64,000 bases of DNA from Verrucomicrobiota bacterium (GTDB lineage: Bacteria > Verrucomicrobiota > Kiritimatiellia > UBA8416 > JABMPJ01). The notes beneath the pieces are model-generated. The model did not search any database and was not told the DNA's origin. It saw only the letters and a list, made by a program, of their open reading frames with translations. How positions within the stretch are numbered: position 1 is the first letter of the stretch; every line of letters starts with the position of its first letter. The position numbers and the translations under genes are program-made. Positions 24,973-60,788 of this stretch are shown piece after piece. The stretch covers positions 49,433 to 113,432 of the forward strand of contig JABGQM010000005.1 of NCBI GenBank assembly GCA_018648805.1. Reading direction: 5' to 3'.

Positions 24973-27296
24973 TGGCCGACGGGGCGGCTCAGAGTCAATA
25001 CGCGTGGCGCTGGCGAGTGGGGCTCCTTTTGGTCCTGCTGGCCGGATTCGGCCTGCGCATGGCGCTGGCCGTCACGGCCTTTGCCTCGACCCGTGACACC
25101 TCGACGGTGGGCATCATGGCCGGCCAAATCCTCAATGGCAGCCGGCCGCTCTTCTACGCCGGACAGGAATACATGGGCGCCCTCGAAGCCTATCTGGTCG
25201 CCATCGTGTTCCGTTGCTGTGGCGTCTCGCCCGTGACATTGGCGCTCATCCCGTCGCTCATGGCCCTGCTATGGGCCGGCGCCCTGTTCGCACTCTTCCG
25301 CCGGCTCTTCGCCTCACCGGCGGCCGGCCTCGCCGCGGCCGCCTGCGCCTCTTTCGGCGGACACTACACGATGTGGTACACCATGGGTGCCTACGGCGGC
25401 TATCCCGAGATGTATCTGTTCGGGACCCTCGCCCTCCTCCTGGCCATGATGGTCAGTCGCAGCGATGCACCCGAGGCCCGGTGGCGCCACTGGCTGCTGC
25501 TGGGTGGCGTGCTCGCCCTGGGGGTCTGGACCAATATGCAGGTGATTCCGTTCTTCCTGACCGCGGGCCTCTGGATAGCGGTCGACTGGTTGCGCCACCG
25601 CCGCCGCTCGTGGCGTCGCCCGGCGGCCATGCTGACCGCCCTCTCCATCGGACTGCTCGGTCTGCTGCCCTCCCGCTTCGTACCGCATAGCGAGAACAAC
25701 GAACTGGTGGGCATGGTGCTGCCGCGCCTCTCCCTCCTGGCCCGCCATGGATCCACTTTTGCGCGCCACAACCTCCCACGCGCACTGTGGTGGCCCGATA
25801 CCCATCTGGTCTGGATCTGGTGCCTCGGTCTGCTGCTCCTGCTGCCAGTGACGTGCTACCTGGCGGGACTCTTCACACGTCGCGGCGAAGCCCGACGTCG
25901 CGTGCCGCTGATCTTCGTGGCGCTCTTCCTGCTGCTCTATCTCTCGCATCCGCTCGCCGCCCTCTCGGCGCCGCGTTACCTTATCTCATTCGTTACCCTC
26001 TCACTGGCCGCCGGGTTCGCCGCCATGCTGGTGGCCCGTCCGCGTCTGCTACGCCTCGCCGGACTCCTCTTGCTGTTGCTGTGGTGTGGCTACAACGTCA
26101 GTGGCACGCTCAACAAGTGCCTGACCTCGCGTGCCGCCAAAGCACAGGAACTCATGATTCGGCATCGCCTGATCGACAAAGCCGAACAGGCCGGTCTGCA
26201 AAACGTGAAGATTATCGGGGGTATCGCCGACTGCCTGCGCGGTCTCAAGCTCTCCTTCTCAGCGGGCGGCCGTGTCGCCTTTCTCGGCTTTCGGGACGAC
26301 CGCATCCTGGCCCATCACACCGCCTGGGCGGCTGATGACCGGGCCGGCTACGCTTTCTCGCCGCGCCTGCGCTTCTATTTCGAAGGCGCCATGACCGCCC
26401 TCGCGGCCGAGAGCTACACCTTCGTGGATGATCCCAACCTGATGATGCTGGCCGATATAGTGCCGTCCCATGCGCGCCGCCGTGCGGTGGACGTGGCTTC
26501 TGTTATCACCGAGGGCGTATCCGGTCGTGGCATCGATCTCTTTGATCGTGTGCGCAGCACCGCCCTCGCCCCCACCGGCGCCGTGCAGCAGATCACCTTC
26601 GCACTGGAGGGCGTCACCACCCTCAGCGGGATGCGCTTCATGCCGGCCGGGGAGGATCTGCCGCGCGGGCCCTACGATCTCGCGGTCTCAACCGATGGCG
26701 CGCACTTCACGCCTATCCTGACCAATATTACGCGTGTGGGGGAGTCGTATGTGAACGGCAACCGGATCTATCTTAAGGATGTCGAGCCGGCTCAGGACCA
26801 CTGCTGGTCACCGGTTGAGGCCTCGCATGTTCGCTTCACCTGCCGCAGCAGCGGAAAAGCCGCCGGCTGGGCCATCGCCGAGGCCTACCTCTTCGAGCAC
26901 GTCGGTGAGCTGGGTCCGGTGGGGGAGGCGGAAGTGGAGGCGATCAGCCGCCACTGCACCTCACGTGCTATCGATTTCGCCTGGTGCGACCGCTGGCTCA
27001 GTCGCAAGCTGGTGGGGGTTGCCACGCCGCCCGCCCCCAACAGTCGCTACGCGCAGACACTCATCCCGCGTCGGGTCGACTTCCGTTCCGGCCTGGCCGT
27101 GATCGTCGACCGCGCCATTGCGGCCGACACCGAGCGCACGCTCACCCGTGCTCTCCCGACCGGTCGGCGCGTCATGCGCGAAGACTTCGATCACTACAGC
27201 GTGTTCCACACCGAAGGGACGTCCACGGCCACACCGGCGGGTGATCCGGACCTGGTCTGGAACGGCCACACCGTCCTGCTGACCCCGTCGCCCTAA
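24972..27296 (+). CDS. GT39/ArnT-like membrane glycosyltransferase with a C-terminal discoidin (F5/8 type C)-like domain
   Basis: ATG at 24972 overlaps the upstream TGA. N-terminus MADGAAQSQYAWRWRVGLLLVLLAGFGLRMALAV is ArnT/PMT-like. The C-terminal segment PRGPYDLAVSTDGAHFTPILTNITRVGESYVNGNRIYLKDVEPAQDHCWSPVEASHVRFTCRS...WAIAEAYLFEH resembles a discoidin domain. Confidence 0.5.
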   Translation: MADGAAQSQYAWRWRVGLLLVLLAGFGLRMALAVTAFASTRDTSTVGIMAGQILNGSRPLFYAGQEYMGALEAYLVAIVFRCCGVSPVTLALIPSLMALLWAGALFALFRRLFASPAAGLAAAACASFGGHYTMWYTMGAYGGYPEMYLFGTLALLLAMMVSRSDAPEARWRHWLLLGGVLALGVWTNMQVIPFFLTAGLWIAVDWLRHRRRSWRRPAAMLTALSIGLLGLLPSRFVPHSENNELVGMVLPRLSLLARHGSTFARHNLPRALWWPDTHLVWIWCLGLLLLLPVTCYLAGLFTRRGEARRRVPLIFVALFLLLYLSHPLAALSAPRYLISFVTLSLAAGFAAMLVARPRLLRLAGLLLLLLWCGYNVSGTLNKCLTSRAAKAQELMIRHRLIDKAEQAGLQNVKIIGGIADCLRGLKLSFSAGGRVAFLGFRDDRILAHHTAWAADDRAGYAFSPRLRFYFEGAMTALAAESYTFVDDPNLMMLADIVPSHARRRAVDVASVITEGVSGRGIDLFDRVRSTALAPTGAVQQITFALEGVTTLSGMRFMPAGEDLPRGPYDLAVSTDGAHFTPILTNITRVGESYVNGNRIYLKDVEPAQDHCWSPVEASHVRFTCRSSGKAAGWAIAEAYLFEHVGELGPVGEAEVEAISRHCTSRAIDFAWCDRWLSRKLVGVATPPAPNSRYAQTLIPRRVDFRSGLAVIVDRAIAADTERTLTRALPTGRRVMREDFDHYSVFHTEGTSTATPAGDPDLVWNGHTVLLTPSP

Positions 27297-27997
27297 AACT
27301 GGTAATCAAACCTCTCTATATCATCCCTATACAGCTTAGCGACTTGGTCAATTGTTGACGGACTGTTGTAGTAGTCATGGTAGTGGTTTCGATTCGTCGT
27401 GTTCCGCTTTTCCAATTCCAATGGCTCTCTCCCCATTGCCCTCAAGAGCCTGTTCATATCTCTATCGAAGTGTTCCACTTTTCCTGTAAAATCCAATTTG
27501 TCAGGGGTGAACAGGACTTGCGGCTGCCAATGATGATTGCCCTTGCTGACTGCAAACTCAACGAAGTGGTCAAATTCTGTTAGATCTTCGTTTGTCATCG
27601 TCCTCAACTGTGCAATGCGACGTGGCTGCGTCGTGAACATTTTCCAATTGGACACCATTCGATCCCAAGGATTACGAACAAAAGTAAACTTAAGATAACT
27701 GGCCAACTCCTTCTTGGGATTTCGCAATGAAGCCGATGATTTATTCTGAAACAATGCCCTTCGAATGGTAGTAGATGCTGCCTTTGGCACATCAAAATAC
27801 ATCAATTTACTCAACTCATCTATATAAACAAAGCTATAGCGATGAGCCGACACCGCTGGGCACTTGCACTTGGGGCATTCACAAGGAATATTCTCTCGTG
27901 CATACCGGTAATAGTACGGTGCACTCTTCTCCAATAGAAAATTGTTGTGCCATTTCTTCCCTAACTTCCAGCACGTTGATCGAATAGTCTCTTTCAT
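27293..27997 (-). CDS. Sulfotransferase family protein (Sulfotransfer_2-like), encoded in a low-GC island
   Basis: 5'-PSB-like motif YFDVPKAASTTIRRAL. 3'-PB-like FVRNPWDRMVSNW. Local GC is ~43-45% against >60% in the flanks. Confidence 0.55.
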   Translation of the reverse strand: MKETIRSTCWKLGKKWHNNFLLEKSAPYYYRYARENIPCECPKCKCPAVSAHRYSFVYIDELSKLMYFDVPKAASTTIRRALFQNKSSASLRNPKKELASYLKFTFVRNPWDRMVSNWKMFTTQPRRIAQLRTMTNEDLTEFDHFVEFAVSKGNHHWQPQVLFTPDKLDFTGKVEHFDRDMNRLLRAMGREPLELEKRNTTNRNHYHDYYNSPSTIDQVAKLYRDDIERFDYQF

Positions 27998-28091
27998 TTA
28001 CTTCTTACACTGATAGGAATTCACTTTCCTGCTGGTCATTCACACGACCCGCAAGTGGCCGCTAAACGCGCCTGGTGCATGCAGACTATGT

Positions 28092-29480
28092 CTATCGCTT
28101 AAGCTTCTGGTATTTCCGCTTCTTGAGCACCAACCGCAGCTTGATCAGTGGAATGGCCGCGCTGGAGGTCAGGAACTTGATCACGAGGAAGCGCAGTCGC
28201 GGGAAGCGGCTGAGTCCAATCAAGCCCGAGATCACACGCTCCTTAATGACATCCTTCTTCGTGTGATCAGGCGTATCACGGTCGTAGGTCGGTACGGCCC
28301 TTCCTGCCTTCTTGAGGCGCGCCACGCGTAGTGGGGCGTTGACCCCTTTGCGCCGGGTCTGGATGCGATGCGTGCGGTAACTTGGATCGTCCGAGACGCA
28401 GATCGTGGTGATCGCACCGGCCTCAACCGCATCGTCCAGCGCCTTGGCCCCGCGCTCGGTTCGTACCAGGATGCGCGAGTGGCCTTTGAACTTGTAGTTG
28501 CCCTCGCGGTCGCGTGTCCAGGCATCGCTGACCGATAGATCTGAAAACTCGCCGGAGCCATCCAGACAGGTCTGGCAGCGCGGCGGCATGTAGAGCGAGA
28601 TCAGGTAGTTGTAGGCACCATCCTTGTAGTTGGAGTAGTGCATGTCGCGGATGGTGTCGTTCTTGAGCAGGGCACGCATCTTGCCCGGCCATTCGCCACC
28701 GCGAAACTCGAAGCCGTTGATGTCATCCCGCCCCAGGTGCTTGGTCTTCAGCAGGTCGGTGACCACCTCCGGTTCGAGTGAGCCACCGCAGAAGAGACCG
28801 ATGGCCAGATGAATCTTGCCCGCCAGTTCAGGGCAGGCTTCCTGCATCAGGCGGTAGCCATGCATCTGGCAGGGCAGGGCGGCCAGAGCAAAGCGGCCCT
28901 GCTCGCGTCGCAGCAGGGCGAAGACCTCGTTGACCGGAATGATCATGTAGCGTGAGCCCTGGCTCTGCAGCAGCTCGGTGCGCGTGCGGGCAATAAAGGC
29001 TTCGCCGCGCCATGGCTGGTCCGGCTTCATACGCGTCACGATGCAGCCATCCACGACCTTGTGCTCCAGCAGATCGGCCAGCAGTCCCGTGATAATGCCG
29101 CCGCCCGCGCCGCGTGCCTGAATCTCCGGGTCGGTCGACTTGCCGACAAATGTCTCACGCACATGTCCGTCGAACGAATCGGTGTCGTGGTCATGTCCAA
29201 ACGTGATCTGGGTGAGGTGTTTGTATTCCACCGTGCCGCCCGGACAGGTCTTGGTGCACAGCCCGCAGTCGATGCACGCGTCCTCATCAATCACCGGGTA
29301 GAGATCGTCACCCATCGTGATGGCGCCCGTCGGGCAGACCCCCGCACAGGTCCCGCAGCGGGTGCAGAGGGTCTTGTCCGTGAACGCGATACTGAGATGG
29401 TCCGGGGAAATTGCCATGCGCGCAAGCAAACCCGATGCACCATACGCAGTCAAGGGGAAAGGCTCCTGTGCGTTTGCCAT
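28092..29480 (-). CDS. Coenzyme F420 hydrogenase/dehydrogenase beta-subunit (FrhB)-like protein with two N-terminal 4Fe-4S ferredoxin motifs
   Basis: CTRCGTCAGVCP and CIDCGLCTKTCP clusters precede an FrhB-like body. Start chosen at MANAQEP (ATG 29480..29478). The track's longer N-terminus is read through the upstream inverted repeat. Confidence 0.6.
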   Translation of the reverse strand: MANAQEPFPLTAYGASGLLARMAISPDHLSIAFTDKTLCTRCGTCAGVCPTGAITMGDDLYPVIDEDACIDCGLCTKTCPGGTVEYKHLTQITFGHDHDTDSFDGHVRETFVGKSTDPEIQARGAGGGIITGLLADLLEHKVVDGCIVTRMKPDQPWRGEAFIARTRTELLQSQGSRYMIIPVNEVFALLRREQGRFALAALPCQMHGYRLMQEACPELAGKIHLAIGLFCGGSLEPEVVTDLLKTKHLGRDDINGFEFRGGEWPGKMRALLKNDTIRDMHYSNYKDGAYNYLISLYMPPRCQTCLDGSGEFSDLSVSDAWTRDREGNYKFKGHSRILVRTERGAKALDDAVEAGAITTICVSDDPSYRTHRIQTRRKGVNAPLRVARLKKAGRAVPTYDRDTPDHTKKDVIKERVISGLIGLSRFPRLRFLVIKFLTSSAAIPLIKLRLVLKKRKYQKLKR

Positions 29481-29504
29481 GCTCTTTCCGACCAGGGGGA
29501 GATT

Positions 29505-29610
29505 CAACGCCCAACAACCAACGCCCAACAACCAACTTCCAAGGGAAGACGAACGTTCTGTGCCTCCCTACTTGGATGTTGGGCGTTGGATGTTGGATGT
29601 TGGAGGTTCA
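29505..29610. repeat. Long imperfect inverted repeat (predicted stem-loop) with nested small palindromes, in the divergent intergenic region
   Basis: Left arm caacgcccaacaaccaacgcccaacaaccaac contains a 15-nt direct repeat. Right arm ggatgttgggcgttggatgttggatgttgg pairs with it at ~21/23 positions. The loop contains cttcc-aag-ggaag and the perfect palindrome gaacgttc. Confidence 0.5.
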
Positions 29611-29716
29611 GTTTTCCTTACTGTTCTTCCCGCACCACGTGTGGTCTATTCCTTTTGCACACGGCGAAAATTTCTCGCAAAGCCCTCTGCTTTGCGACAG
29701 GGTAACTATCTTCAGC

Positions 29717-32254
29717 ATGAAATCTACGCCTGACAGCCTGCACTCTGACGCGACGCGCCCTGCCTCTGTGGGGTATCGGCTCAGCATGGTGCCGGGACTC
29801 CTCGGTAGCGCTTGGCTGATCGCGTGGACCTGGGCCTGGAACCAGCGTTACGAGCTGCGCACCGGATACGACAAGACCAGCGACCTGCTGGTCGCTGTGC
29901 CCACGCCGCGACTCTGGATCATCGTCATGGCGGCCCTCGGGCTGGCCGGTCTGTTGTGGCTCGTGGCGCGGCACTGGCCCATCGATACGCGTGCGCGCAC
30001 GCTGCGCCGCTGTCGCGTGGTCTTGACCGTCTTTGCGCTGCTCTCGCTTCCGTTTGGTCTGCTTTCCCGCACCCTCGCCCCCGACGGGCTCGGGCTCGGC
30101 ATGCTCTGGCATATCGGACTGCCCGTGGTGGCCCTGGCGGCACTGGTGGCGCTGGTCGCCCTGCTCCTGCCGCTGCTGGAAGGGCGGAGGGGGACGGTCC
30201 CATCCGGGCGCCACCGCTATCGTCTATGGATCTTCTTCTTTATTGCCGTGCACCTGCCCTCGCTCTGGTTTGCACGCCCCTGGGAGAGTGACCGTTTCTA
30301 TCGCCACCGCCACCTCGGTGGCGATGAGCCGCGCTACCTTCTCATGACGCATAGCCTGGCCCAGGACCGTGATTTCAATCTCCTGAACAACTACGTGGAG
30401 AATCACCGCGACCGCTACATCTGCTGGACCAATCCGTACAACGACCCCGGTGATGCCGCTTACGCTAGCCGTGCCGTGAAGTGGGGCGCCGATGCACCGC
30501 ATTCCACCCCGGAGTACTGGCAGGGGCGGCGCTACGGAATCGAGCGATTGGGGATGCCGCTGCTGATCGCCCCCGCCTACAAGATCGGACTCAAGTGTGG
30601 TCAGCGGCAGCGCTATGGCGTGGTCCTCATGTTGAACCTGGTGCTGGTCTTCAGCATGGCCAACATCTACCTCTTTGCCGCGCAACTTGGCGTCGCGCAC
30701 GGGGCCGCCCTGCTCGCCGCGCTCGGCGCCGGTCTGAGTGCCCCGCTGTGTCTCTATGGCGTGTCGGCCTACACCGAGCCGGTCAGTGCCGCCCTGATCA
30801 TCTTCTGTCTGCGCATGATCCACGCCTTCCGCGCCCGACGCCTCGAGGGGGGGATGCCGGCGCTGCTCCCGCTCCTCAGTTTTGCCGTCGGCCTGGCCTA
30901 TCTGCCCTGGGTGCATGAGAAGATGATTCCCTTGGCCCTGTTCCTCGGGCTCTGTTTCATCCTGGCCGCCCGTCCGCGCTGGCGCACCCTACTGCCCATC
31001 GCGCTCGCACTCGCGCTCAGTTTCGCGCTGCAGGGCCGCTATTACTGGCTGCTCTACGGCCAGGTCACCCCGGCGCACGTCCACGGCCACTCGTTCAGTG
31101 CCGCCGCCCTGTTCAGAGAGGGGCTCTGGGGACTGCTGCTCGACCAGAAGCGGGGCGTCATGCCGGCGGCCCCCTGGGTACTTGCCGGAGGGGTCGGTCT
31201 GGGGATCTGGTTCCGCCGTCAGTGGCGCTTTGCTGTGGCACCGGCCGTCATGGTCGTGGCCTTTCTGCTCATGACCGGGGCCTTTGGCGGCTGGTATGGC
31301 GGCGGATCGGCCCAGCCACGCTACCTGCTCAATATCTTGCCGATCCTGGCGGTTGGTGTGGCCGTGGCGTGGGCGCACGGCCGCCGCCCGTTGCGCGGGC
31401 TGATCCTGGTGACGGTTCTACTCGGCATGGCCCAGGGCATCAACGCCGTGCTGACCCCTGACTTCCTTGTCTGGCACCGCGCGCCCTTCCTGCGCGATCT
31501 CTATCCTTGTGTGTTCAAGCTCGATCCGGTGGAGTGGATGACGATCACCGCCTGGATGGTCGCCCTGCTCTGGCTGGGTGTGGGACTGCCGCAGTGGCCC
31601 CGGCGCAAGAGCCTGGCGGTGATCCCCGCCTGCTGCTGCCTCCTGATCATGGGCGGCTCTGTGTGGCGCTTCCACAAGAGTACGCGCCCCACGATTGCCG
31701 TCCAGAACCCCGCCCTTCTCTCGAGCTTCTACCGTGACGACCTCCGCTTTGCGACCTTCAACAAGCGCATCATGATGCGCCGCTGGGAACGGGCCTATTC
31801 GGCGCAGCAGACCCCCGACACGGTTATGGGGGCCCGCACCCAGTATGAGAACAAGGTGTCAGGCCACTGCAGCGTGGTTCAGGACCCCACGGCCGAGGGA
31901 GGTGCTGCAGCGCGCTGGGAGGGTGAGGCCCACAGTGACTGGCTGCCGCTTACCGTGGGTCCCATCCTCTCGCTCTATGAAGGCGACTACCGTGCCACGT
32001 TCCATCTGCAGGTGCGTGGCCGTGCGGTCGAGGAGACGCAGCCCCTCACCGTGCGGCTGGTGGTCAGTGCGGGTGGCGTCATTTTCAATAGCACCGTTCT
32101 TGAACCGAAGTCATTGACCGGCGACTGGGCCGACTATCAGCTCCCCTTTACGCTCGCCACCCCCGTGCGTGGCGTGGACATGTCGGTCCAGGTGGTGGGC
32201 GGCGGCACGTTGCAGATGGACCGTGTTCAGCTGGATTATCTTGTGCTGCCCTGA
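29717..32254 (+). CDS. Large polytopic membrane protein (putative GT-C-like) with a C-terminal beta-sandwich domain
   Basis: ATG at 29717. The track's 29411 start runs through the inverted repeat. Many TM helices across ~560 aa. C-terminal domain ...YEGDYRATFHLQVRGRAVEETQPLTVRLVVSAGG...MDRVQLDYLVLP. Confidence 0.45.
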   Translation: MKSTPDSLHSDATRPASVGYRLSMVPGLLGSAWLIAWTWAWNQRYELRTGYDKTSDLLVAVPTPRLWIIVMAALGLAGLLWLVARHWPIDTRARTLRRCRVVLTVFALLSLPFGLLSRTLAPDGLGLGMLWHIGLPVVALAALVALVALLLPLLEGRRGTVPSGRHRYRLWIFFFIAVHLPSLWFARPWESDRFYRHRHLGGDEPRYLLMTHSLAQDRDFNLLNNYVENHRDRYICWTNPYNDPGDAAYASRAVKWGADAPHSTPEYWQGRRYGIERLGMPLLIAPAYKIGLKCGQRQRYGVVLMLNLVLVFSMANIYLFAAQLGVAHGAALLAALGAGLSAPLCLYGVSAYTEPVSAALIIFCLRMIHAFRARRLEGGMPALLPLLSFAVGLAYLPWVHEKMIPLALFLGLCFILAARPRWRTLLPIALALALSFALQGRYYWLLYGQVTPAHVHGHSFSAAALFREGLWGLLLDQKRGVMPAAPWVLAGGVGLGIWFRRQWRFAVAPAVMVVAFLLMTGAFGGWYGGGSAQPRYLLNILPILAVGVAVAWAHGRRPLRGLILVTVLLGMAQGINAVLTPDFLVWHRAPFLRDLYPCVFKLDPVEWMTITAWMVALLWLGVGLPQWPRRKSLAVIPACCCLLIMGGSVWRFHKSTRPTIAVQNPALLSSFYRDDLRFATFNKRIMMRRWERAYSAQQTPDTVMGARTQYENKVSGHCSVVQDPTAEGGAAARWEGEAHSDWLPLTVGPILSLYEGDYRATFHLQVRGRAVEETQPLTVRLVVSAGGVIFNSTVLEPKSLTGDWADYQLPFTLATPVRGVDMSVQVVGGGTLQMDRVQLDYLVLP

Positions 32255-32290
32255 GTTCCGGACCTTGACTTGGCCTTGGGCTGTGACATT

Positions 32291-33187
32291 ATGGGGGTCA
32301 TGCAGACGAGGACCCACAACACGATTGACCGTGATGCGCCGCAGGAAGAGCTGCCCGTGGTAGTCTATACGCGTGACCGGTTTCAACGGCTCGGATGGCG
32401 TGTATGGAGGTTGATGTTTCATGACCTCGTGCGGTCACGCGGCCTTATCTGGCGTCTTTTTGTTCGCAGTTGGTCGGCCCAGTACCGCCAGTCCTGGATG
32501 GGGTATGTATGGGCCATCGTGCCGCCCGTAGTGGCTGCTGTGGCCTTCTCGTTTGCCGTCCGCCACAGGGTTCTACGCGTGGGACCCACGCCCATTCCCT
32601 ACGTCTGCTACGCCCTGTGGGGCATGACCGTCTGGCAGTTGTTCACCGGGATCTACAACTCATCCTCGGGTGTTCTCAAGGGTGCCAGCCAGATGATCTC
32701 ACGCATCAACTTTCCCAAGGATGCTCTCGTGTTTGCCTCTATCGGGCAGCCGCTTTTCACCTTTCTTATTCGGCTGGTTGTTGTGTTTCTGGTTTTCGGC
32801 TTTAAGGGCGTCATGCCCGGTTGGACCGCTTTGCTTGCCCCCTTTGCGTTGATTCCCCTTGTACTGATCGCTCTGGGTATGGGCATGATCATGGCCGTGG
32901 TCTCAGTGGCAGGCTCGGATATACGCCGGGCCTTCGGGGCGTTTCTTAACTTCGGTATGCTGCTGACCCCCGTGATCTATCCGCCGCCGGTCTCGTGGCC
33001 ATCCGCTGCCGTGAACGTTGTTAACCCGCTCAGTCCGGTGTTGTCGGTGTCACACAGTCTGCTGCAGGGCGCCCCCATCACAACCCCCGTACTTTACCTG
33101 GCGGCGTGGATCTTCGGGTTGCTGATGTTTGGGTGTGGCTGGCGGATCTTTCGAATGGCGCTGCCACGCATTGCGGAGAGATTCTGA
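32291..33187 (+). CDS. wzm: ABC-2 type polysaccharide exporter permease (Wzm/TagG/KpsM-like)
   Basis: VRSRGLIWRLFVRSWSAQYRQSWMGYVWAIVPPVVAAVAFSF matches the ABC-2 permease N-terminal signature. Six predicted TM helices. Sits immediately upstream of the ATPase. Confidence 0.75.
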   Translation: MGVMQTRTHNTIDRDAPQEELPVVVYTRDRFQRLGWRVWRLMFHDLVRSRGLIWRLFVRSWSAQYRQSWMGYVWAIVPPVVAAVAFSFAVRHRVLRVGPTPIPYVCYALWGMTVWQLFTGIYNSSSGVLKGASQMISRINFPKDALVFASIGQPLFTFLIRLVVVFLVFGFKGVMPGWTALLAPFALIPLVLIALGMGMIMAVVSVAGSDIRRAFGAFLNFGMLLTPVIYPPPVSWPSAAVNVVNPLSPVLSVSHSLLQGAPITTPVLYLAAWIFGLLMFGCGWRIFRMALPRIAERF

Positions 33188-33188
33188 T

Positions 33189-34388
33189 ATGCGCAACGAC
33201 GTGTTAGTTGAGGTGAACGGCATCGGCAAGAAGTTTTGTCGATCCCTCAAGCGCGCCATGTTCTATACCGGCGTTGACGTCATGTGCGGCGTGGTTAACC
33301 GCGTCCCGCGCGGCGATCGTCTGCGCAAAGAGGAGTTCTGGGCGCTCGACGATATATCCTTCGCGCTACGCCGTGGCGAATGTCTCGGGTTGGTTGGGCC
33401 CAACGGCTCGGGCAAGACCACGCTCTTGCGTATCCTGAACGGCATTATCAATCCGGACACAGGGTCGGCCACGGTGCGTGGCAGCACCGGTGCCCTGATC
33501 CATCTGGGTGCGGGATTTCACCCCACGCTCACAGGCCGTGAGAACGTCTATATCAGCGGTGCCATTCGCGGTATGTCACATCGTGAGGTAGACGCCCGGT
33601 TCGATGAGATCGTCGAGTTTGCCGGCGTCGGTGAGTTTATTGATATGCCCATACAGCACTACAGTGCCGGGATGTTCGTGCGGCTGGGATACTCCGTGGC
33701 GGCTCACATTGATCCCGATGTGTTGCTGATGGATGAAGTACTCGCCGTGGGTGATGCCGAATTCAAGTCGAAGTGCCTTGATCATCTGGCCCGTAAGATC
33801 GAGGGTGGATGCACGCCTGTTTTTGTTAGTCATTCCATGGCCAGCGTGGCTGAGATCTGTACGCGGGTGATCGTGCTCGCCAAGGGGGGCATTGTATTCG
33901 ACGGCGATGTGGATGCGGGGATTGCGGCGTACCAGGAGGAACTGTCGCGACATCGTTGGTCCGATATGGAGCATGCAGGGGGGAGCGGCCCGATTCGCGT
34001 AGAGGAGCTCCGGCTCCTGTCGCCCACGGCCACCACGGGCGTACCGATGGCGCTGGGGCTCGAGCTCTCCTCGGCTTCACCGGCCGGTCGACTACGTGTT
34101 GAGTTGGCCCTGCAGTCGGCCCGCTACGGTCCCGTGGCGGTCATGCGCTCTCACCCCGTAGATGCACCGTCACTCGGGCAGGTGCTTCCGATGCAGGTGC
34201 GCGTGGCTGAGAATCCACTCTTGCCTGGCTATTACCTGATTGTAGCACACGTGGTGGATGATGCCACCGGACGCGTTGTATCGCGGCATGCCGCCCAGCT
34301 TCCCTTCCGCGTCGCTCCGGGCGGCGACGGCTACGGTGCCTCCAAAGGGCTGTTGGATTTGGGTGAAACGTGGAGTGCGGCGGTATAG
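33189..34388 (+). CDS. wzt: ABC transporter ATP-binding protein (Wzt/TagH-like) with a C-terminal ~150-aa beta-sandwich carbohydrate-binding domain
   Basis: ATG at 33189 lies 2 nt after the wzm stop. Walker A GPNGSGKTT, signature YSAGMFVRLG, Walker B LLMDEVLAVGD. A C-terminal extension (GGSGPIRVEELRLL...FRVAPGG) has the layout of Wzt C-terminal glycan-binding domains. Confidence 0.75.
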   Translation: MRNDVLVEVNGIGKKFCRSLKRAMFYTGVDVMCGVVNRVPRGDRLRKEEFWALDDISFALRRGECLGLVGPNGSGKTTLLRILNGIINPDTGSATVRGSTGALIHLGAGFHPTLTGRENVYISGAIRGMSHREVDARFDEIVEFAGVGEFIDMPIQHYSAGMFVRLGYSVAAHIDPDVLLMDEVLAVGDAEFKSKCLDHLARKIEGGCTPVFVSHSMASVAEICTRVIVLAKGGIVFDGDVDAGIAAYQEELSRHRWSDMEHAGGSGPIRVEELRLLSPTATTGVPMALGLELSSASPAGRLRVELALQSARYGPVAVMRSHPVDAPSLGQVLPMQVRVAENPLLPGYYLIVAHVVDDATGRVVSRHAAQLPFRVAPGGDGYGASKGLLDLGETWSAAV

Positions 34389-34406
34389 TTCAAGGCGGAT
34401 GCACGA

Positions 34407-35138
34407 ATGATTCTTTCAGACCGGTTTGTCTTTATCCACTATCCAAAGACGGGTGGGTCTTTTGTGCGTTCCGTACTCAAGCGTGTGCTGGATGCGGCGA
34501 AGATAGCCTACACGGAAGGCGGGATGCATGATACCTGCGCGGATATTCCCGTGGCGTATCACGGCGTCCCCGTTGTGACATGCGTACGCAACCCGTATGA
34601 CATTCGTGTGTCAGAGTACAAGTATCGGTGGTGGGCAACGGATGCCTCCCCAGCGCTGCAAGAGCAGTTTCTCTCCTATTATGCGCACTACCCGGAGCTG
34701 TCATTTGAGGAGTATGTCCGAGCATGGCACCACTGTACGGAGATATCGGTGATCTCTGAAGGGATCAACCCCTACATGGCCAGCATGGGACAGTACAGCA
34801 AGCGCTTCATCAAGACGTTCGCCCGGGACCCTTCAGCGGTGTTCCTGGCCATGAGCAACGCGTTCATGCAGAGCGACGCGTTTCACGCGGCCTTGCATGA
34901 TGTGACCTATCTGCACACGGACTCCCTGAATGCTGATCTGTATGCGTTTCTGTGCAAGCAGGAATTCTCACGGAGGCATATCCGGTTTGTGAGAAGCGCC
35001 GCGAAGATCTTGCCGCCGGGAGGTCATCAGAGGGACGGCCAAGACCATTGGCTGAGTTACTATACGCCCGAGTTGAAGGCTGAGGTCCGGGCGCAGGAAC
35101 GACTGCTCTTTCGTATGTTTCCGCGCTATGATGTATAG
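34407..35138 (+). CDS. Sulfotransferase family protein (carbohydrate sulfotransferase-like)
   Basis: FVFIHYPKTGGSFVRSVL is a PAPS 5'-phosphosulfate-binding loop of PKTGGT type. VRNPYDIRVSEYKY is 3'-PB-like. Confidence 0.55.
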   Translation: MILSDRFVFIHYPKTGGSFVRSVLKRVLDAAKIAYTEGGMHDTCADIPVAYHGVPVVTCVRNPYDIRVSEYKYRWWATDASPALQEQFLSYYAHYPELSFEEYVRAWHHCTEISVISEGINPYMASMGQYSKRFIKTFARDPSAVFLAMSNAFMQSDAFHAALHDVTYLHTDSLNADLYAFLCKQEFSRRHIRFVRSAAKILPPGGHQRDGQDHWLSYYTPELKAEVRAQERLLFRMFPRYDV

Positions 35139-35156
35139 GTGTATCATGGGAGATGG

Positions 35157-35972
35157 ATGATGATATGTACGGATGATTTTGTGTTTGTTCACTTTCCCAA
35201 GACGGGAGGAACCTTTGTGGCCGATGTGCTGCAGCGTGTTCTGTCGCAGACGGGGCGGCGCTACGAGGAGGAGGAGATGCACGCCCGTGCTACCGGTATC
35301 CCTTCCGTGCACCAGGGCAAACCCATTCTGGCCTGTGTGCGCAGCCCTTATGACCTGAAAGTCTCTCAATACCAGTATCGCTGGTGGAAGAGTCGCGAAT
35401 CCAAACCGATCCTGAAAGAGCTTCACAAGCGCTGTCCGGGTTACCGGAACTGGACATTCGAGGAGTACGTCGTGGGGTGGGACCAGTTTGTACCGTTGGC
35501 GTTGAGCAACGCCGCGCGCAATCCGTTTACGCGGACGGTGGGTCAGTACTCTCAGAAGTTCATCGATTTTTTCTTCCGTGCGCCAGATGCATTCTTTGCT
35601 GACCTCACGGAGGAGATGCTCCTGGGGGATCTGGAGCAGGCGATGTTTCCCGTCACCTTCCTTACCACGGAGACGTTGAACGATGGTCTGTGCGATTTTC
35701 TGCTCCGCCATGGGTTCAAGGAGGAAGAGGTGGCATTCATTCGAGACGAGAAGCGGATTCTGCCGCCTGGGGCGGTACGCAGCCGGAACGATCGATGGCA
35801 ACAGCACTACACGCCCGGCCTCAAGGCATACGTCCGCCAGCAGGAGCGGTTGATGTTTAAGCTCTTCCCTGAGTTCGAAGAGCGCACCCCGTCCACGGGA
35901 TCGTCCGGTGTGTCGGATGCCCCCGAACCAACGGATGCCATGCACGGGAACCCGTCGACGGTGGCTTCGTGA
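35157..35972 (+). CDS. Sulfotransferase family protein, tandem paralog of 34407..35138
   Basis: FVFVHFPKTGGTFVADVL and VRSPYDLKVSQYQY. ATG at 35157 is preceded by GGGAGA. The track's GTG at 35139 is an alternative start. Confidence 0.55.
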   Translation: MMICTDDFVFVHFPKTGGTFVADVLQRVLSQTGRRYEEEEMHARATGIPSVHQGKPILACVRSPYDLKVSQYQYRWWKSRESKPILKELHKRCPGYRNWTFEEYVVGWDQFVPLALSNAARNPFTRTVGQYSQKFIDFFFRAPDAFFADLTEEMLLGDLEQAMFPVTFLTTETLNDGLCDFLLRHGFKEEEVAFIRDEKRILPPGAVRSRNDRWQQHYTPGLKAYVRQQERLMFKLFPEFEERTPSTGSSGVSDAPEPTDAMHGNPSTVAS

Positions 35973-37492
35973 TATGGCGCTGCATGCATCCACGGCTCGC
36001 TACCGTTCTGCTGTGCATGCTGGTTGCGGCTCTGTATGGGGCTAGCCGAGCAGGTAATCTTGACCGCCCCCTCGTGTACGAGGGGTACTCCTATCTGCAG
36101 CCGGGACTCTCCCTTTTCAATACCGGGCACTATGCCCTGGATGCCGGGGTCCTTGATCCGGATGCCAACACGTTTCACAAGCCGCCCTTAACATTTCTCC
36201 TGCTGGGAGCAAGTGCCCGGTGCCATGCCGATCCGGTCAGAGGCGCCCGGCTGGTTCCCATGCTCGTGGGGTTGTGGGTGGTCCTGGTGCCCTTGCTCGC
36301 CACCGGATCTGTCGTGCCGTCCCTGGTCATTCTCATGTCGCCATTTTTCTACGCGGCAGCAGGCCATATCCAAACCGACCCCATTGTCGGTCTTCTCGGG
36401 TGCAGCCTCGTGACATGGGGGATGTTGCGTCTGTGGGAGCGGCGTGAGGTACTGCGGCTGGATACGGCGGCCCAGTGGTTGATTGCCGTGGGTCTGTCGA
36501 CTCTCTGGCTGGGCAAGCTGGAAACAGCGGTACTGGCGTCTGCCGGGGTGGGGCTGCTCAGCCTGGCGCTCCCACGTGGCATGCGCCGCCAAAGCATTGT
36601 CCGGCTCCTCCAGGTATCACTCTGCGGCATGCTTCTCTTTATCCTGGTGACCTTTCTGTTGGGCCTGACCAACGCTAAGTTGTTTGATGAATCGGTTGGT
36701 CGTGTGGTGCGGACCCTCTATACGCAGACCGACGCGATTAGCCGTAGTAATGAGGCCGCGGGTGGTACGGTCGTGGCCCGGCATAGTATTTTCAAGATGT
36801 TCGTACGCTATCGGTTGCCGTTGCTGTTTGCTCTGGCCCTGCTGCCGGCTCTCATAAGCCTGCCGCGTCATAGGGCGCGGGTGCCGCTGACACTTTTGCT
36901 GGTGGGCGCGGCGGTCGTTCTGGCCGTACCGTATATGGTGCTGGGAATACGGGGAGAGGGGTATCCCCGCTACTTTCTGACGGCCTTCATTCCGTTGCTT
37001 CTTCTGCAAGGGAAGAGTCTGAGCGTGATGTCACGCAAGGTGCGATGGAGCATATCAGCCGTCATCCTTGTGGTGGCAGCGGTGGGCTTGCTTCCTCGCA
37101 CCTGCGCACTTATGGCCTCGCCGGGCAGTCCCACGGCCTGGTATGGAACCGTGGGCACCCGCCAGGCCGTCAACCGGCTCCAGGAGGTCACGCGCGAAGG
37201 CGACCTGGTCATGGGGCCCGGTGCGGCATTGTTTTACCTCCACAACAGGCAGAAGCTCACGCTCGAATCGTTCATCCACTCACAAGCGCGTACCTCTCAG
37301 GCAGTCGCGCTGGGGAGCCAGGTGCAGGCGGCCGTAGTCTTTCCTCGCATGGGGATTCACCATTCCCGCACACCTGTGGGGTGCGCCCTCGCATCGCTGC
37401 TGGCCCGGGATCCGGTCATCGAGAAGGTGGGGAGCTGGCGCCTGATTTATGCTCCCCGGCAGCGTATCGCCACGGGCTCAACGCTTGACTAG
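35969..37492 (+). CDS. Polytopic membrane protein, GT39/ArnT-like (putative GT-C glycosyltransferase)
   Basis: GTG at 35969 overlaps the upstream stop; ATG at 35984 (MHPRLATVLLCMLVAALYG) is an alternative start. More than 10 TM helices, with a short C-terminal soluble part. Confidence 0.45.
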   Translation: MIWRCMHPRLATVLLCMLVAALYGASRAGNLDRPLVYEGYSYLQPGLSLFNTGHYALDAGVLDPDANTFHKPPLTFLLLGASARCHADPVRGARLVPMLVGLWVVLVPLLATGSVVPSLVILMSPFFYAAAGHIQTDPIVGLLGCSLVTWGMLRLWERREVLRLDTAAQWLIAVGLSTLWLGKLETAVLASAGVGLLSLALPRGMRRQSIVRLLQVSLCGMLLFILVTFLLGLTNAKLFDESVGRVVRTLYTQTDAISRSNEAAGGTVVARHSIFKMFVRYRLPLLFALALLPALISLPRHRARVPLTLLLVGAAVVLAVPYMVLGIRGEGYPRYFLTAFIPLLLLQGKSLSVMSRKVRWSISAVILVVAAVGLLPRTCALMASPGSPTAWYGTVGTRQAVNRLQEVTREGDLVMGPGAALFYLHNRQKLTLESFIHSQARTSQAVALGSQVQAAVVFPRMGIHHSRTPVGCALASLLARDPVIEKVGSWRLIYAPRQRIATGSTLD

Positions 37493-37507
37493 TGTGCGCC
37501 CTCTGAG

Positions 37508-38302
37508 ATGATGGCGGTCAGGAATAGAACAATGCGCAACTGTATGATACTTGGAGCGGGACGCAGCGGTACCAGCTTGGCGGCGGGATGTCTCGCGTCG
37601 GCCGGTTATCACATGGGTGACGACCTGATTGAACCGTGTGAGACGAATCCGCAAGGGTTCTTTGAATGCCGGCGTATCAATGCTTTGAATGAGGATATCC
37701 TGCGTGCCGTGGATGCACGCGGCGCGCCCCGCTACCTGGGGCTATTCGGCCGTCAGCGGTTGCGGCACGACCAGTACTGGTTGGCCTGTCTCTCGCCGCG
37801 GACCACGTTTCGGCCTGACCCGGCCATCCGGGAGCGTATTCGAGACTGCTTGTCACGACGGCCTTACTGCTTCAAGGATCCCCGTTTCTGCTATACACTA
37901 CCCGTCTGGCAGCCCGAGCTAGGGCGTGCCGCCTTCCTGTGTGTCTTTCGCCATCCGGGCGCCACAGTGCGGAGTACGCTGCGGGAGTGCGAGCGGATGG
38001 ATTACCTGGGTGACGTGCACATGACCGAACGATGGGCCTGGCAGCTCTGGACCTGTATGTACCGTGCGGTCCTGGCCATGCCGGACCGCGACCGCACATG
38101 GCTGTTTGTGCACTACAACCAGATACTGGAGGGGGATGCCTTCTCGCGCGTGGCCGAGCACCTCGATGTGACGATTCAATCGGACTTCGTTAATCCCGCG
38201 TTGAGTCGCACCCCTACGATGCCCATCACCTCTTCCTCCGTGGCGCGGCTCTACGATGCACTGTGTGAACGGGCGGGCTATGACAGGAGTAGAGACAGAT
38301 GA
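37508..38302 (+). CDS. Sulfotransferase family protein (Sulfotransfer_3/Stf0-like), a third sequence family
   Basis: ILGAGRSGTSLAAGCL is a P-loop-like 5'-PSB motif. Size 264 aa. No similarity to the other sulfotransferase families at the motif level. Confidence 0.55.
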   Translation: MMAVRNRTMRNCMILGAGRSGTSLAAGCLASAGYHMGDDLIEPCETNPQGFFECRRINALNEDILRAVDARGAPRYLGLFGRQRLRHDQYWLACLSPRTTFRPDPAIRERIRDCLSRRPYCFKDPRFCYTLPVWQPELGRAAFLCVFRHPGATVRSTLRECERMDYLGDVHMTERWAWQLWTCMYRAVLAMPDRDRTWLFVHYNQILEGDAFSRVAEHLDVTIQSDFVNPALSRTPTMPITSSSVARLYDALCERAGYDRSRDR

Positions 38303-40770: not shown

Positions 40771-41953
40771 TGGAAACTATCAGCTCGTGAATCTTGGCGA
40801 TATCGCCATGATGGATGTGTTTGTGCAGCGGATCATGGCGATGTTCGGCAATCCCGAGATCATGCTGGTCACGCGCAACCCGGATGCGGCAGCACGTCAG
40901 TTTCCAGGTATAACGCCGGTCGATCCCCATCTCCTGGTGCCTTCTGCCCGGCCCCTGAACCGGTTGGCTCGGTGGCGCCGGAAGGCGGGAGTACGGGTAG
41001 GGGTACCGCGGCCAGCGCCAACGGAAATCCCACTCATTGATGGCGTGGATGCTGTGCTGTTTTCCGGGTGTGGGTTTCTCAATGATCATTTTTCTTTCGG
41101 GGCGGCCATGCGCCTGCGTCGTTTGTTGTACGCCGCGAAGCGGGGCAAGGTTGTGGCCCTGTTTGGACAGGGGGTAGGGCCGGTCAGTGCACCGGCCCTC
41201 AGGCAGGCCATGGCTGCAACATTGCCGCTGGCTGATCTCATCGGCGTCAGGGAGCGGGTGGAAGCGCCGCGTATTCTGCGTGAGGTAGGTGTCGCGCAAG
41301 AGAGGATTGCCGTGGTCGGAGATGATGCCACGGAGCTTGCCTTCAGGCGATGTCGCGAGCACCCGGCAGCGCTCCGTATCGGCGTCGGTGTACGGGCGGC
41401 ACCCTACGCTGGAATCGGTAAGGCCGAAGCGCATCTGCTTGCGGACTCACTCGCGCGGGTGCTGGGCGAGCATGGCGCGCAAGCGGTGCCTATTCCGATC
41501 ACCTTCCAATCAGAATTCTCGGATCGCACGACGCTGCAGCGCCTGCTGGCATGCAGCGTCCCTGGCATGGGGGACATGACCGTGGATCGGATCATTGACG
41601 ACGTCGGTAGCTGTGGTGTTGTGGTCTCCGGCACGTACCATGCTGCCGTTTTTGCCCTGGCCCAGGGCATACCGGTGGTCGGAATCTATGCCAACGACTA
41701 TTACCGGACCAAGTTGCACGGCCTGTTCGATATGTATGGGTGGTCGGAGGAAAACCTGCTGCACGTTCAGCAGGCCGACTTCTCCGGCTTGCTGGCCACG
41801 CGTGTTCGCGATCTGCTGATCCACAAAGACCGCTTCACGACGCCCCTGCGCGATGCCGCCCGGCACCAGATCCACGCCTCGCGGGATAGCTACAGTCGCT
41901 TGGCCGTCTTGTTGGGGGGCGCGCCTCTGCCTCCGTTCCGCAAGGCCGTGTAA
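40751..41953 (+). CDS. Polysaccharide pyruvyl transferase family protein (second copy)
   Basis: ATG at 40751, in frame with the track ORF 40562 and overlapping the upstream gene by 20 nt. N-terminus MKILVDNGNYQLVNLGDIAMM is a typical family start. Confidence 0.6.
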   Translation: MKILVDNGNYQLVNLGDIAMMDVFVQRIMAMFGNPEIMLVTRNPDAAARQFPGITPVDPHLLVPSARPLNRLARWRRKAGVRVGVPRPAPTEIPLIDGVDAVLFSGCGFLNDHFSFGAAMRLRRLLYAAKRGKVVALFGQGVGPVSAPALRQAMAATLPLADLIGVRERVEAPRILREVGVAQERIAVVGDDATELAFRRCREHPAALRIGVGVRAAPYAGIGKAEAHLLADSLARVLGEHGAQAVPIPITFQSEFSDRTTLQRLLACSVPGMGDMTVDRIIDDVGSCGVVVSGTYHAAVFALAQGIPVVGIYANDYYRTKLHGLFDMYGWSEENLLHVQQADFSGLLATRVRDLLIHKDRFTTPLRDAARHQIHASRDSYSRLAVLLGGAPLPPFRKAV

Positions 41954-41957
41954 TGGT

Positions 41958-43690: not shown

Positions 43691-43845
43691 CTCTTGCATT
43701 ATGGGCCAATCCGGCAGCCCCATCAAGGTGTCGTTGTGCCCGTTGTATATCTTGGGCTGGCAATCCCTCGCCTCTCGGGTGATACTTCGCCCGTATTGAA
43801 GTGGGAGTCTGTTGTTGAATCCGTGTGCAGAGCGTATATGAGTAG

Positions 43846-60682: not shown

Positions 60683-60788
60683 ATTGGTATAGTGGATCCC
60701 CAAATAGCAGGTAGGTAGCCTGATACCCCGTGGTCATCCCGACGACGGGGAACTTGAACCAGTAAACACTAATATGGAGAATCATAAC

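Follow-up and report, generated by a model that had tools for sequence, protein, structure and literature searches.

A Verrucomicrobiota locus with four PAPS-type sulfotransferases, the probable core of a Wzm/Wzt-type island for a sulfated surface glycan

The locus and its operon

The genes described here, ST1 to ST4, encode four sulfotransferases of the type that binds 3'-phosphoadenosine 5'-phosphosulfate (PAPS). Their source is a metagenome-assembled genome with the deposited name "Verrucomicrobia bacterium" (contig of about 174 kb; locus tags HN919_160xx; GenBank proteins MBT3294313-MBT3294319). The window, by which we mean the whole 64-kb stretch of DNA that was analysed, has a GC content of about 0.6. 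Each gene of the locus has three NCBI protein records, and the locus is also present in JGI, ENA and Logan assemblies. An earlier note, made from the sequence alone, had placed four sulfotransferases of three unrelated families beside exporter and polymerase genes and predicted a multiply sulfated glycan as their product. The four open reading frames (ORFs) lie where it put them, and the motifs it quoted (PKAASTT, PKTGGS, PKTGGT and GAGRSGTS) are all present in the translations.

ST2, ST3 and ST4 belong to a run of plus-strand genes from 29411 to 41953, all in the same direction and either spaced by at most 18 nt or overlapping by 4 nt, which is one tightly packed operon. It leads from a 12-segment membrane protein through a Wzm-like permease, Wzt, ST2, ST3, a 507-aa membrane protein, ST4 and a combined GT2+GT1 glycosyltransferase to a pyruvyl transferase. 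ST1 lies about 1.4 kb from the operon start, across a divergent promoter region, and adjoins an FrhB-like gene read in the same direction. FrhB/FdhB-like proteins are often paired with polysaccharide pyruvyl transferases. Nothing informative came from scanning 27000-44000 for promoters and terminators: promoter-like sites were at shuffle level, and the weak terminator-like matches lay inside genes.

27293-27997, minus: ST1, a soluble Sulfotransfer_2-family sulfotransferase of 234 aa with a Cys-rich N-terminus, 3' of the FrhB-like gene
28092-29531, minus: FrhB/FdhB-like protein with two [4Fe-4S] clusters (Pfam FrhB_FdhB_C, E=8.6e-31; FrhB_FdhB_N, 1.1e-21; Fer4 domains)
29411-32254, plus: first operon gene, a polytopic membrane protein with about 12 segments by hydropathy (NCBIfam NF047440, E=2.7e-7); its true start is probably downstream of 29411
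32270-33187, plus: Wzm-like ABC-2 permease of a polysaccharide exporter with at least four membrane segments (NCBIfam galactan Wzm/RfbD, E=2e-6, and KpsM, 1e-4, both weak)
33129-34388, plus: Wzt ABC ATPase, with a nucleotide-binding domain at aa 67-273 followed by a C-terminal extension of about 130 aa; probable start at Met21, about 33189
34407-35138, plus: ST2, a soluble protein of 243 aa from a distinct subfamily, distantly Sulfotransfer_2/1-like
35157-35972, plus: ST3, 271 aa, tandem paralog of ST2
35969-37492, plus: polytopic membrane protein of 507 aa with at least six segments by hydropathy (NCBIfam NF047440 at E=0.017 only), overlapping the ST3 stop codon by 4 nt
37508-38302, plus: ST4, soluble and Sulfotransfer_3-like (TPST, CurM-ST, Stf0 type)
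38299-40770, plus: cytoplasmic glycosyltransferase of 823 aa, N-terminally GT2 (Glycos_transf_2, E=3.5e-34, aa 17-145) and C-terminally GT1/GT4 (Glyco_trans_1_4, 5.4e-19, aa 652-783), overlapping the ST4 stop codon by 4 nt
40562-41953, plus: last operon gene, a polysaccharide pyruvyl transferase (Pfam PS_pyruv_trans, E=1.8e-23); its true start is probably near 40770
41958-42932, minus: divergent GT2-like glycosyltransferase with a DSDAHP motif, converging on the operon end

Neither membrane protein of the operon had a match in the Pfam scan. The first bears a weak likeness to the LA_3751/LA_3752 putative glycosyltransferase family, its NF047440 score being far under the cut-off.

Evidence for four sulfotransferases

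Sulfotransferases of this type are recognized by two signatures, and both can be read in each of the four proteins. The ST1 translation contains FDVPKAASTTIRRAL, and its 5'-phosphosulfate-binding loop is PKAASTT; the corresponding contexts are HYPKTGGSFV in ST2, HFPKTGGTFV in ST3 and ILGAGRSGTSL in ST4. The 3'-phosphate-binding Arg...Ser motif reads RNPWDRMVS, RNPYDIRVS, RSPYDLKVS and FRHPGATVRS in ST1 to ST4, respectively.

Profile searches, which the earlier note had named as its check, bore out the assignment for ST1 at the curated cut-off and for the families of ST2 and ST4, and failed to do so for ST2, ST3 and ST4 as single sequences. ST1 matches Pfam Sulfotransfer_2 (PF03567) over model positions 5-252 of 252 (E=1.1e-20, 75.3 bits, cut-off 22). 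ST2 yielded a sub-threshold match to Sulfotransfer_1 (13.7 bits) and none to PF03567, ST3 had no Pfam match at all, and ST4 reached 22.1 bits (E=2e-4) with Sulfotransfer_3 (PF13469), under the cut-off of 27. None of the four was detected in an NCBIfam search, and single-sequence searches of ST1, ST2 and ST4 against PDB sequences returned nothing useful; a microcompartment shell protein that ST2 matched weakly (E=0.005) was dismissed as spurious. Since three of the four genes are thus without confirmation from a curated profile, deeper tests were required.

The tandem paralogy of ST2 and ST3 that the note described holds: they share 40% identity over 242 aa (BLASTP, E=3e-70), and ST3 scores 286 bits against a hidden Markov model (HMM) of the ST2 family. 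In the alignment of 45 family members P13, K14, T15, G16 and G17, His41, and R61, N62, P63...S69 are invariant or at least 90% conserved. The key residues of ST2 are accordingly placed in its PKTGGS loop (K14), at His41 and at R61...S69, and ST3 has PKTGGT, the conserved His and RSPYDLKVS in their stead. PF03567 is matched by 27 of the 45 members (E<0.01) and PF00685 (Sulfotransfer_1) by 10 of the 45. When the family profile was compared to the PDB, 35 of the 36 listed matches were cytosolic sulfotransferases, with SULT1A3 (1cjm) the best at E=6e-6; the lone other was a designed helical repeat protein at E=0.17. In the alignment to 1cjm the PAPS loop, the catalytic His column and RNPxDxxVS coincide, with R61 and S69 of ST2 opposite RNPKDVAVS of SULT1A3.

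For ST4 we collected 411 homologs, and because many at 41-51% identity have recorded PF13469 matches, ST4 is taken as a borderline member of that family. Invariant features are the GxGRSGTS loop, R148, P150 and E53, while loop residues G16, G18, R19, S20, G21, T22 and S23 as well as S156 are at least 90% conserved. In the PDB the ST4-family profile found sulfotransferases only (TPST1 and SULT7A1, E about 3e-3), R148 and S156 aligning with RNPKDTAVS of SULT7A1.

Fold models were built for ST2 and ST4, and ST1 and ST3 were placed in the superfamily by homology. The AlphaFold2 model of ST2 (predicted local distance difference test, pLDDT, 92.4; predicted template modelling score, pTM, 0.89) was compared with the PDB by Foldseek, and the best 50 matches were all PAPS-dependent sulfotransferases (probability 0.9-1.0, TM score 0.35-0.5). 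The best 15 for the ST4 model (pLDDT 91.0) were CurM ST, TPST1/2 and the bacterial sulfotransferase 3rnl, and Stf0 came at rank 19. The catalytic base was considered by class, His in SULT-type and Glu in TPST-type enzymes. His41, at least 90% conserved and shared by ST2 and ST3, occupies the same column as the catalytic His of cytosolic sulfotransferases; the candidate base is the invariant Glu53 in ST4, by position only, and in ST1 the segment HHWQPQ.

By family, motifs and fold, and at a level well past coincidence, ST1 to ST4 classify as PAPS-type sulfotransferases, and the count of four in the earlier note stands, on PF03567 for ST1, on AlphaFold2 and Foldseek for ST2 and ST4, and on the family profiles and the second, Arg...Ser motif. 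HMMs of the three groups found no fifth sulfotransferase in the window. The unannotated ORFs 2988-3818, 3815-4354 and 42932-43726 were considered as further candidates and set aside, as they look secreted or of low complexity and are without PAPS motifs. As for gene starts, the public gene call and the homolog consensus begin ST4 at Met9, that is at 37532 and not at 37508, and the longest ORF of ST3 begins with a GTG at 35139, the deposited protein at 35157.

Relationships among the four enzymes

How many families do these enzymes represent? Three unrelated ones, as had been claimed, overstates their distance. An hhalign comparison of the ST2 family with ST1 gives E=1e-4 with both PAPS motifs aligned. 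Many bridging proteins from reference-genome loci, mostly of Rhodobacteraceae, match the ST2-family HMM at E 1e-9 to 1e-14 and ST1 in phmmer at 1e-5 to 1e-18. Since such intermediates join ST1 to ST2/ST3, there are two Pfam-level families within one superfamily: one comprises the canonical ST1 and the divergent tandem pair ST2/ST3, the other is ST4, and they share one fold. Between the ST2 and ST4 families hhalign detected no sequence relationship, so it is the fold that links them.

ST2 and ST3 miss PF03567, yet 27 of the 45 relatives match it and bridging sequences exist, which makes the pair a distant sister subfamily. Its extent becomes apparent in a search of 1.84 billion representative proteins with the ST2-family profile, which returned 549 clusters (at 50% identity) at E<=1e-30 and 5,866 at E<=1e-3. 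Judged by these profile matches, ST2/ST3 form a sizeable distinct subfamily that grades into the wider Sulfotransfer_2 group, is without a Pfam model of its own and is overlooked by the current Pfam and NCBIfam models.

The export system

That the sulfotransferases lie beside an exporter was correctly recognized in the earlier note, as Wzm/Wzt and glycosyltransferases are encoded in the locus. The nucleotide-binding domain of Wzt matches A. aeolicus Wzt in the PDB (6amx, 6m96 and 7k2t; E=5e-55 to 6e-54), the similarity covering that domain only, and orthologs of the permease adjoin Wzt in five loci of other genomes (L014, L020, L027, L029 and L036). The polymerase genes that had been read into the locus were not recovered: no large ORF of the window has a Pfam match to Wzx, Wzy, PCP or OPX, and neither an O-antigen ligase (Wzy_C) nor capsule export proteins were detected in the window. 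With an ATPase and an ABC-2 permease present and Wzx/Wzy undetected, the system is by its predicted gene content of the ABC-transporter-dependent (Wzm/Wzt) type. In this pathway polymerisation is carried out by cytoplasmic glycosyltransferases, and the GT2+GT1 protein of 38299-40770 is a candidate for the chain-building enzyme.

The C-terminal extension of Wzt (33951-34385, residues about 275-419, some 130-145 aa) is not conserved with the equally long extensions of Wzt orthologs in other ST2-linked loci. Its 145 aa gave no Pfam match in a scan that would have included the Wzt_C model, no PDB sequence match, and no similarity to the Wzt C-termini of other loci with ST2-family genes.

Recurrence in other genomes

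Genes of the ST2 family directly follow Wzm/Wzt orthologs, or lie within a few kb of them, in Anaerolineae, Pyrinomonadaceae, Phycisphaeraceae, Vicingaceae and Rhodothermales (Wzt E 1e-62 to 1e-68). Among the loci with usable flanks, Wzt is at most 6.3 kb from the ST2-family gene in 6 of 23. The larger module of ST2-like, ST4-like and GT2 genes is also found in Verrucomicrobiia (L003), Anaerolineae (L027), a Phycisphaerae contig and a JGI metagenome contig (L056), and homologs of both ST2 and the GT2-like protein of 41958-42932 occur in cyanobacteria.

This GT2-like protein connects sulfation with sugar transfer. Its homologs (n=147) are named glycosyltransferases in UniRef, and the distant ones match PF00535. 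The family comes in a stand-alone form of about 300 aa and a two-domain form of about 550 aa (L003 8276-9982; L056 8367-9941; proteins P0193-P0301). Among the long homologs (n=21) the ST4-family HMM recognizes the C-terminal domain of at least 13 (E 1e-5 to 3e-22), while 4 of the 21 have an S-adenosylmethionine (SAM)-methyltransferase domain instead. The copy in the window ends exactly at the junction, with ...VLVGM; relative to the L003 and L056 fusions the break falls between GM and HRSGTS. Its partner domain would evidently be supplied in trans, plausibly by ST4. Such GT2::ST4-like fusions in other genomes tie ST4-type sulfation to glycosyl transfer, and they are the strongest computational argument that ST4-type enzymes may act on the sugar added by an enzyme of the 41958-42932 type. 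A profile of the GT2-like::ST proteins gave only noise when compared to the PDB. One glycosyltransferase::sulfotransferase (GT::ST) fusion lies in a Wzx/Wzy-type locus (L059), so the module is not bound to a single export route.

The surrounding island

The operon is part of an island of about 12.9-58 kb that also contains GT2/GT4 enzymes, a second pyruvyl transferase (17808-18995, minus), methyltransferases and an epimerase. Two of its genes matter for what follows:

45602-47239, minus: DDE transposase, separating the first MBOAT gene from the AlgX-like gene presumed to be its partner
55290-57926, minus: stand-alone adenylation / carrier-protein / thioesterase protein, beyond the transposase and 17 kb away

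Two MBOAT + AlgX-like (SGNH) pairs and the adenylation protein are found at 43846-45294, 47349-48392, 49338-50774, 50775-52019 and 55290-57926 (minus). They suggest an extracytoplasmic O-acylation of the glycan, Alg- or Dlt-like and possibly with an unusual acyl or aminoacyl donor. The GC content drops to 0.54-0.57 at 44-52 kb, and a composite origin or a recent rearrangement of the island is possible.

Seven large polytopic membrane proteins (6-12 segments, 507-947 aa) are spread over the island, at 12877-15612, 20186-22816, 22813-24972, 24885-27296, 29411-32254, 35969-37492 and 58031-60682. Weak PMT, PMT_2 or YfhO-like (GT-C) signatures are seen in three or four of the seven and an F5/8 type C domain in one. 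So many putative glycosyltransferases facing the periplasm are unusual for one island.

Giant secreted proteins flank the island at 167-2947 (the C-terminal part of a 2473-aa Laminin_G_3 protein), 4371-12773, 60774-62543 and 62646-64000. The largest has 2800 aa with FG-GAP, MBG and fn3 domains and a signal peptide; these proteins are possible adhesins or glycoprotein substrates.

A proposed pathway and its competitors

A sulfated glycan is the most economical product of this locus. We favor, with a probability of roughly 0.7, that it is the core of a Wzm/Wzt surface-glycan island whose glycan is sulfated before export by soluble cytoplasmic PAPS-dependent sulfotransferases. The proposal builds on what is directly seen: enzyme family and fold, motifs, soluble topology, gene order, the recurrence of the module and the GT::ST fusions. 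By hydropathy none of ST1 to ST4 has a membrane segment, and in ST2, ST3 and ST4 the PAPS loop begins within 13-20 residues of the N-terminus. With neither a membrane segment nor room for a signal peptide in any of the four, they must work in the cytoplasm, where PAPS is made.

In this pathway the GT2+GT1 enzyme, the GT2-like protein of 41958-42932 and other glycosyltransferases of the island would assemble the glycan on a polyprenyl carrier, on the cytoplasmic side of the membrane. With PAPS as the presumed donor, ST2, ST3 and ST4 would move sulfate onto specific sugar hydroxyls at several positions, so that a repeat may carry more than one sulfate. The pyruvyl transferase would add ketal groups, and ST1, encoded in the adjacent minus-strand unit, possibly acts on the same glycan. 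Wzm/Wzt would export the finished anionic polymer, whose destination might be a lipopolysaccharide (LPS) O-antigen, a capsule-like layer or a glycoprotein. Later extracytoplasmic changes by the GT-C-like membrane proteins and the MBOAT/AlgX-like acylation pairs are possible.

Several points weigh against this pathway. A priming phosphoglycosyl transferase of the WecA/WbaP type was not detected in the window; its gene may lie in another part of the genome, in the way that enterobacterial wecA lies away from the glycan cluster. The genes cysD, cysN, cysC and cysQ are absent from the window as well as from 5.6 kb upstream and 10 kb downstream of it, and co-located PAPS genes have been treated as a hallmark of sulfated-polysaccharide clusters (PMC11641403). 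As single sequences ST2, ST3 and ST4, three of the four enzymes, score under the curated Pfam cut-offs. All that is known of the organism is a metagenome-assembled genome, and the locus is known from its genes alone. A gene like ST2 also occurs in a setting that is not concerned with glycans, in Cystobacter ferrugineus (L057; MPIN01000002.1, 6894-12365). Finally, ST1 belongs to a separate transcription unit, and the DDE transposase together with the size of the island suggests a composite, so that four enzymes need not mean one product.

This last point leads to the most serious competitor, a composite island for at least two glycans. ST1, the FrhB-like protein and the upstream GT-C, GT2, pyruvyl transferase and epimerase would then serve another glycan than ST2-ST4, and each product would carry fewer sulfates than the gene count implies. 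ST1 and the FrhB-like gene do form their own unit on the opposite strand, several functions are duplicated (two pyruvyl transferases, two MBOAT/AlgX-like pairs, several methyltransferases), the transposase sits where the GC content dips, and the conserved module elsewhere has ST2-like and ST4-like genes and no ST1-like gene. However, Wzm/Wzt is the single exporter detectable in the window and ST1 is only about 1.4 kb from the operon start; we regard a division of labor as possible and, on balance, rather unlikely. Since ST1 is in another transcription unit and the island looks composite, the one multiply sulfated product of the earlier note is plausible rather than proven.

Could the sulfated glycan be destined for proteins instead of LPS or a capsule? 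Analogues exist in the ABC-transporter-dependent S-layer glycan pathways of Firmicutes and in the sulfated S-layer glycans of archaea. The giant FG-GAP/MBG/Laminin_G proteins that flank the island, which are adhesin-like, would be acceptors at hand after export, and PMT_2/GT-C-like membrane enzymes might carry out the transfer or elaborate the glycan, given seven polytopic membrane proteins of which three or four are weakly PMT/PMT_2/YfhO-like and one has the lectin-like F5/8 type C domain; that no Wzy_C ligase or capsule export protein was detected points the same way. We consider this unlikely, though, as the PMT-like matches are weak (E 2e-7 to 5e-3) and mostly under curated cut-offs, a recognisable oligosaccharyltransferase is not present, and the nearness to adhesin genes is possibly coincidental.

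A further idea concerns the role of the sulfate and not the fate of the glycan. ST2 and/or ST3 could add a sulfate cap to the non-reducing end that terminates the chain, halts elongation and is read for export by the C-terminal domain of Wzt, as a counterpart of the methyl, methyl-phosphate or Kdo caps (WbdD in E. coli O9a; 3-O-methyl in A. aeolicus). Gene order in capped O-antigen systems is wzm-wzt-wbdD, and wzm-wzt-ST2 mirrors it; the latter order recurs in Anaerolineaceae (L014) and Vicingaceae (L029), and 6 of the 23 ST2-family loci with usable flanks have Wzt at most 6.3 kb away. The likeness extends to the proteins, in that Wzt matches at E=5e-55 over its nucleotide-binding domain, has an extra C-terminal domain and is directly followed by the gene of a small-group transferase, here ST2 (E. 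coli O9a WbdD/Wzt-CBD and A. aeolicus WzmWzt; PMC3482155, PMC9445017). The extension of about 130 aa sits where cap-binding domains sit, and because the GT2-like scaffold of 41958-42932 is fused to a sulfotransferase in some genomes and to a methyltransferase in others, the two modifications look interchangeable. Methyl, methyl-phosphate and Kdo are the known caps (PMC9445017), and with sulfate not among them the idea would be new. Nevertheless, the extension of Wzt is without detectable similarity to known cap-binding domains or to the extensions of other ST2-linked Wzt proteins, the coiled-coil ruler/terminator architecture of WbdD is not evident here, and most ST2-family loci are without a nearby Wzt. 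The GT::ST fusion is also found in the Wzx/Wzy-type L059, where caps play no role, and two tandem paralogs plus ST4 fit several sites of a repeat unit better than one cap. Supported by position only, a sulfate cap is quite improbable. If it were true, sulfotransferase and methyltransferase caps would be evolutionary alternatives, and the ST2/ST3 subfamily would be a chain terminator placed after wzt in several phyla.

Least likely of all, and very doubtful in our view, is that some of the sulfotransferases act on a non-glycan, be it a lipid or polyketide-like intermediate or tyrosines of the giant FG-GAP/MBG/Laminin_G proteins: Cystobacter ferrugineus, Sessilibacter and several Gammaproteobacteria do have ST2-family genes beside an acyl-AMP ligase, Foldseek ranked the CurM polyketide sulfotransferase and tyrosylprotein sulfotransferases first for ST4, and the window encodes both the adenylation/carrier/thioesterase protein (55290-57926) and giant surface proteins, but ST2, ST3 and ST4 come after wzt and before the glycosyltransferases of a single operon, ST4-like domains are covalently fused to the GT2-like enzyme in many genomes, secreted proteins would need to be sulfated in the cytoplasm before export, and the adenylation protein is 17 kb off, past the transposase.

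The Cystobacter cluster itself contains an acyl-AMP ligase, a carrier protein, a HemN-like radical-SAM protein, the ST2-like protein, a short-chain dehydrogenase and a second sulfotransferase. An acyl-AMP ligase also adjoins the ST2-family gene in several gammaproteobacterial loci and, in Rhodobacteraceae, more distant ST1-like relatives; carrier-protein, radical-SAM and dehydrogenase genes beside an ST2-family gene were seen in Cystobacter only. Clusters of this type hint at an uncharacterised pathway to a sulfated lipid or small molecule. Other non-glycan settings of ST2-family genes are L015, L021 and L024.

Comparison with known sulfated glycans

Sulfotransferase-bearing polysaccharide clusters are already known, and this locus is a richly equipped example of them. 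In Synechocystis sp. PCC 6803 the xss cluster makes synechan, a case proven both genetically and chemically (PMC8205485). Like the operon described here, it has several sulfotransferases of distinct subfamilies among glycosyltransferases; unlike it, xss relies on Wzx/Wzy, encodes two sulfotransferases and comes with a dedicated regulatory system (PMC8205485), as opposed to Wzm/Wzt and four enzymes known from genes alone. Cyanobacterial exopolysaccharide clusters with sulfotransferases include both Wzx/Wzy and ABC types, and in synechan and the cyanobacterial clusters the gene count roughly followed the sulfate stoichiometry (PMC8205485).

Closer in its export route is the sulfated capsule of Vibrio sp. 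KMM 8419, for which the glycan structure has been solved and whose cluster encodes an ABC transporter, three sulfotransferases and cysN/cysD/cysC (PMC11641403). ABC export, cytoplasmic assembly, sulfation before export and a composite locus with mobile elements would be common to both, whereas the PAPS genes of the Vibrio cluster have no counterpart here within about 80 kb (PMC11641403). A sulfated capsular polysaccharide has also been described for Cobetia marina (PMC11766843).

Within the same phylum, Pontiella sulfatireligans F21 (Kiritimatiellae, Verrucomicrobiota) produces a sulfated exopolymer in culture that was chemically detected and is mainly N-sulfated (PMC7356697). Its putative glycosaminoglycan (GAG)-like cluster resembles the present locus at the domain level, with a PF13469-type sulfotransferase among GT2, GT4, a methyltransferase and a YfhO-like protein (PMC7356697). 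That cluster has one sulfotransferase, as compared to four plus Wzm/Wzt and pyruvyl transferases here.

The sugar-modifying enzymes NodH (rhizobial Nod factor) and Stf0 (mycobacterial trehalose-2-sulfate, PDB 1tex) share the PAPS-dependent fold and motifs and a soluble cytoplasmic nature with ST1-ST4, and their acceptors are sugars, as is predicted for ST1-ST4; sequence searches revealed no significant similarity. NodH and Stf0 belong to dedicated pathways, in which small glycolipids or oligosaccharides are the acceptors.

The locus does not overturn current understanding. What is modestly new is that ST2 ('hypothetical protein HN919_16080'), ST3 ('hypothetical protein HN919_16085'), ST4 and the GT2-like gene appear in the public record only as "hypothetical protein", ST1 alone being named as a sulfotransferase (MBT3294313.1, 'sulfotransferase family 2 domain-containing protein'). 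In addition, neither the wzm-wzt-ST synteny nor the swaps between GT2::ST and GT2::methyltransferase are described in the literature on such clusters cited here. The Verrucomicrobiota are a phylum known for degrading sulfated algal polysaccharides. If the favored pathway is true, an uncultured marine-type lineage of this phylum makes its own heavily anionic, sulfated and pyruvylated glycan. This would matter for the cycling of carbon and sulfur in the sea and for the question of where the sulfated "glycosaminoglycan-like" polymers of biofilms and granular sludge come from. The GT2::sulfotransferase fusions represent a ready-made enzyme pairing that could be useful for engineering microbial sulfated polysaccharides.

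The rarity of bacterial sulfated glycans, to which the earlier note had pointed, is hard to maintain. Besides the sulfated exopolymers of Pontiella, loci that encode three to five sulfotransferase domains or more recur across phyla (Verrucomicrobiia, Phycisphaerae, Anaerolineae, cyanobacteria, and metagenome contigs without an assignment). Glycans with heavy sulfation may be widespread in bacteria though little studied.

Two loci of uncultured bacteria stand out by their density of such domains. In L056 six sulfotransferase domains lie within 7 kb (5781-12414), and the Wzx/Wzy locus L059 (8001-17140) contains at least five.

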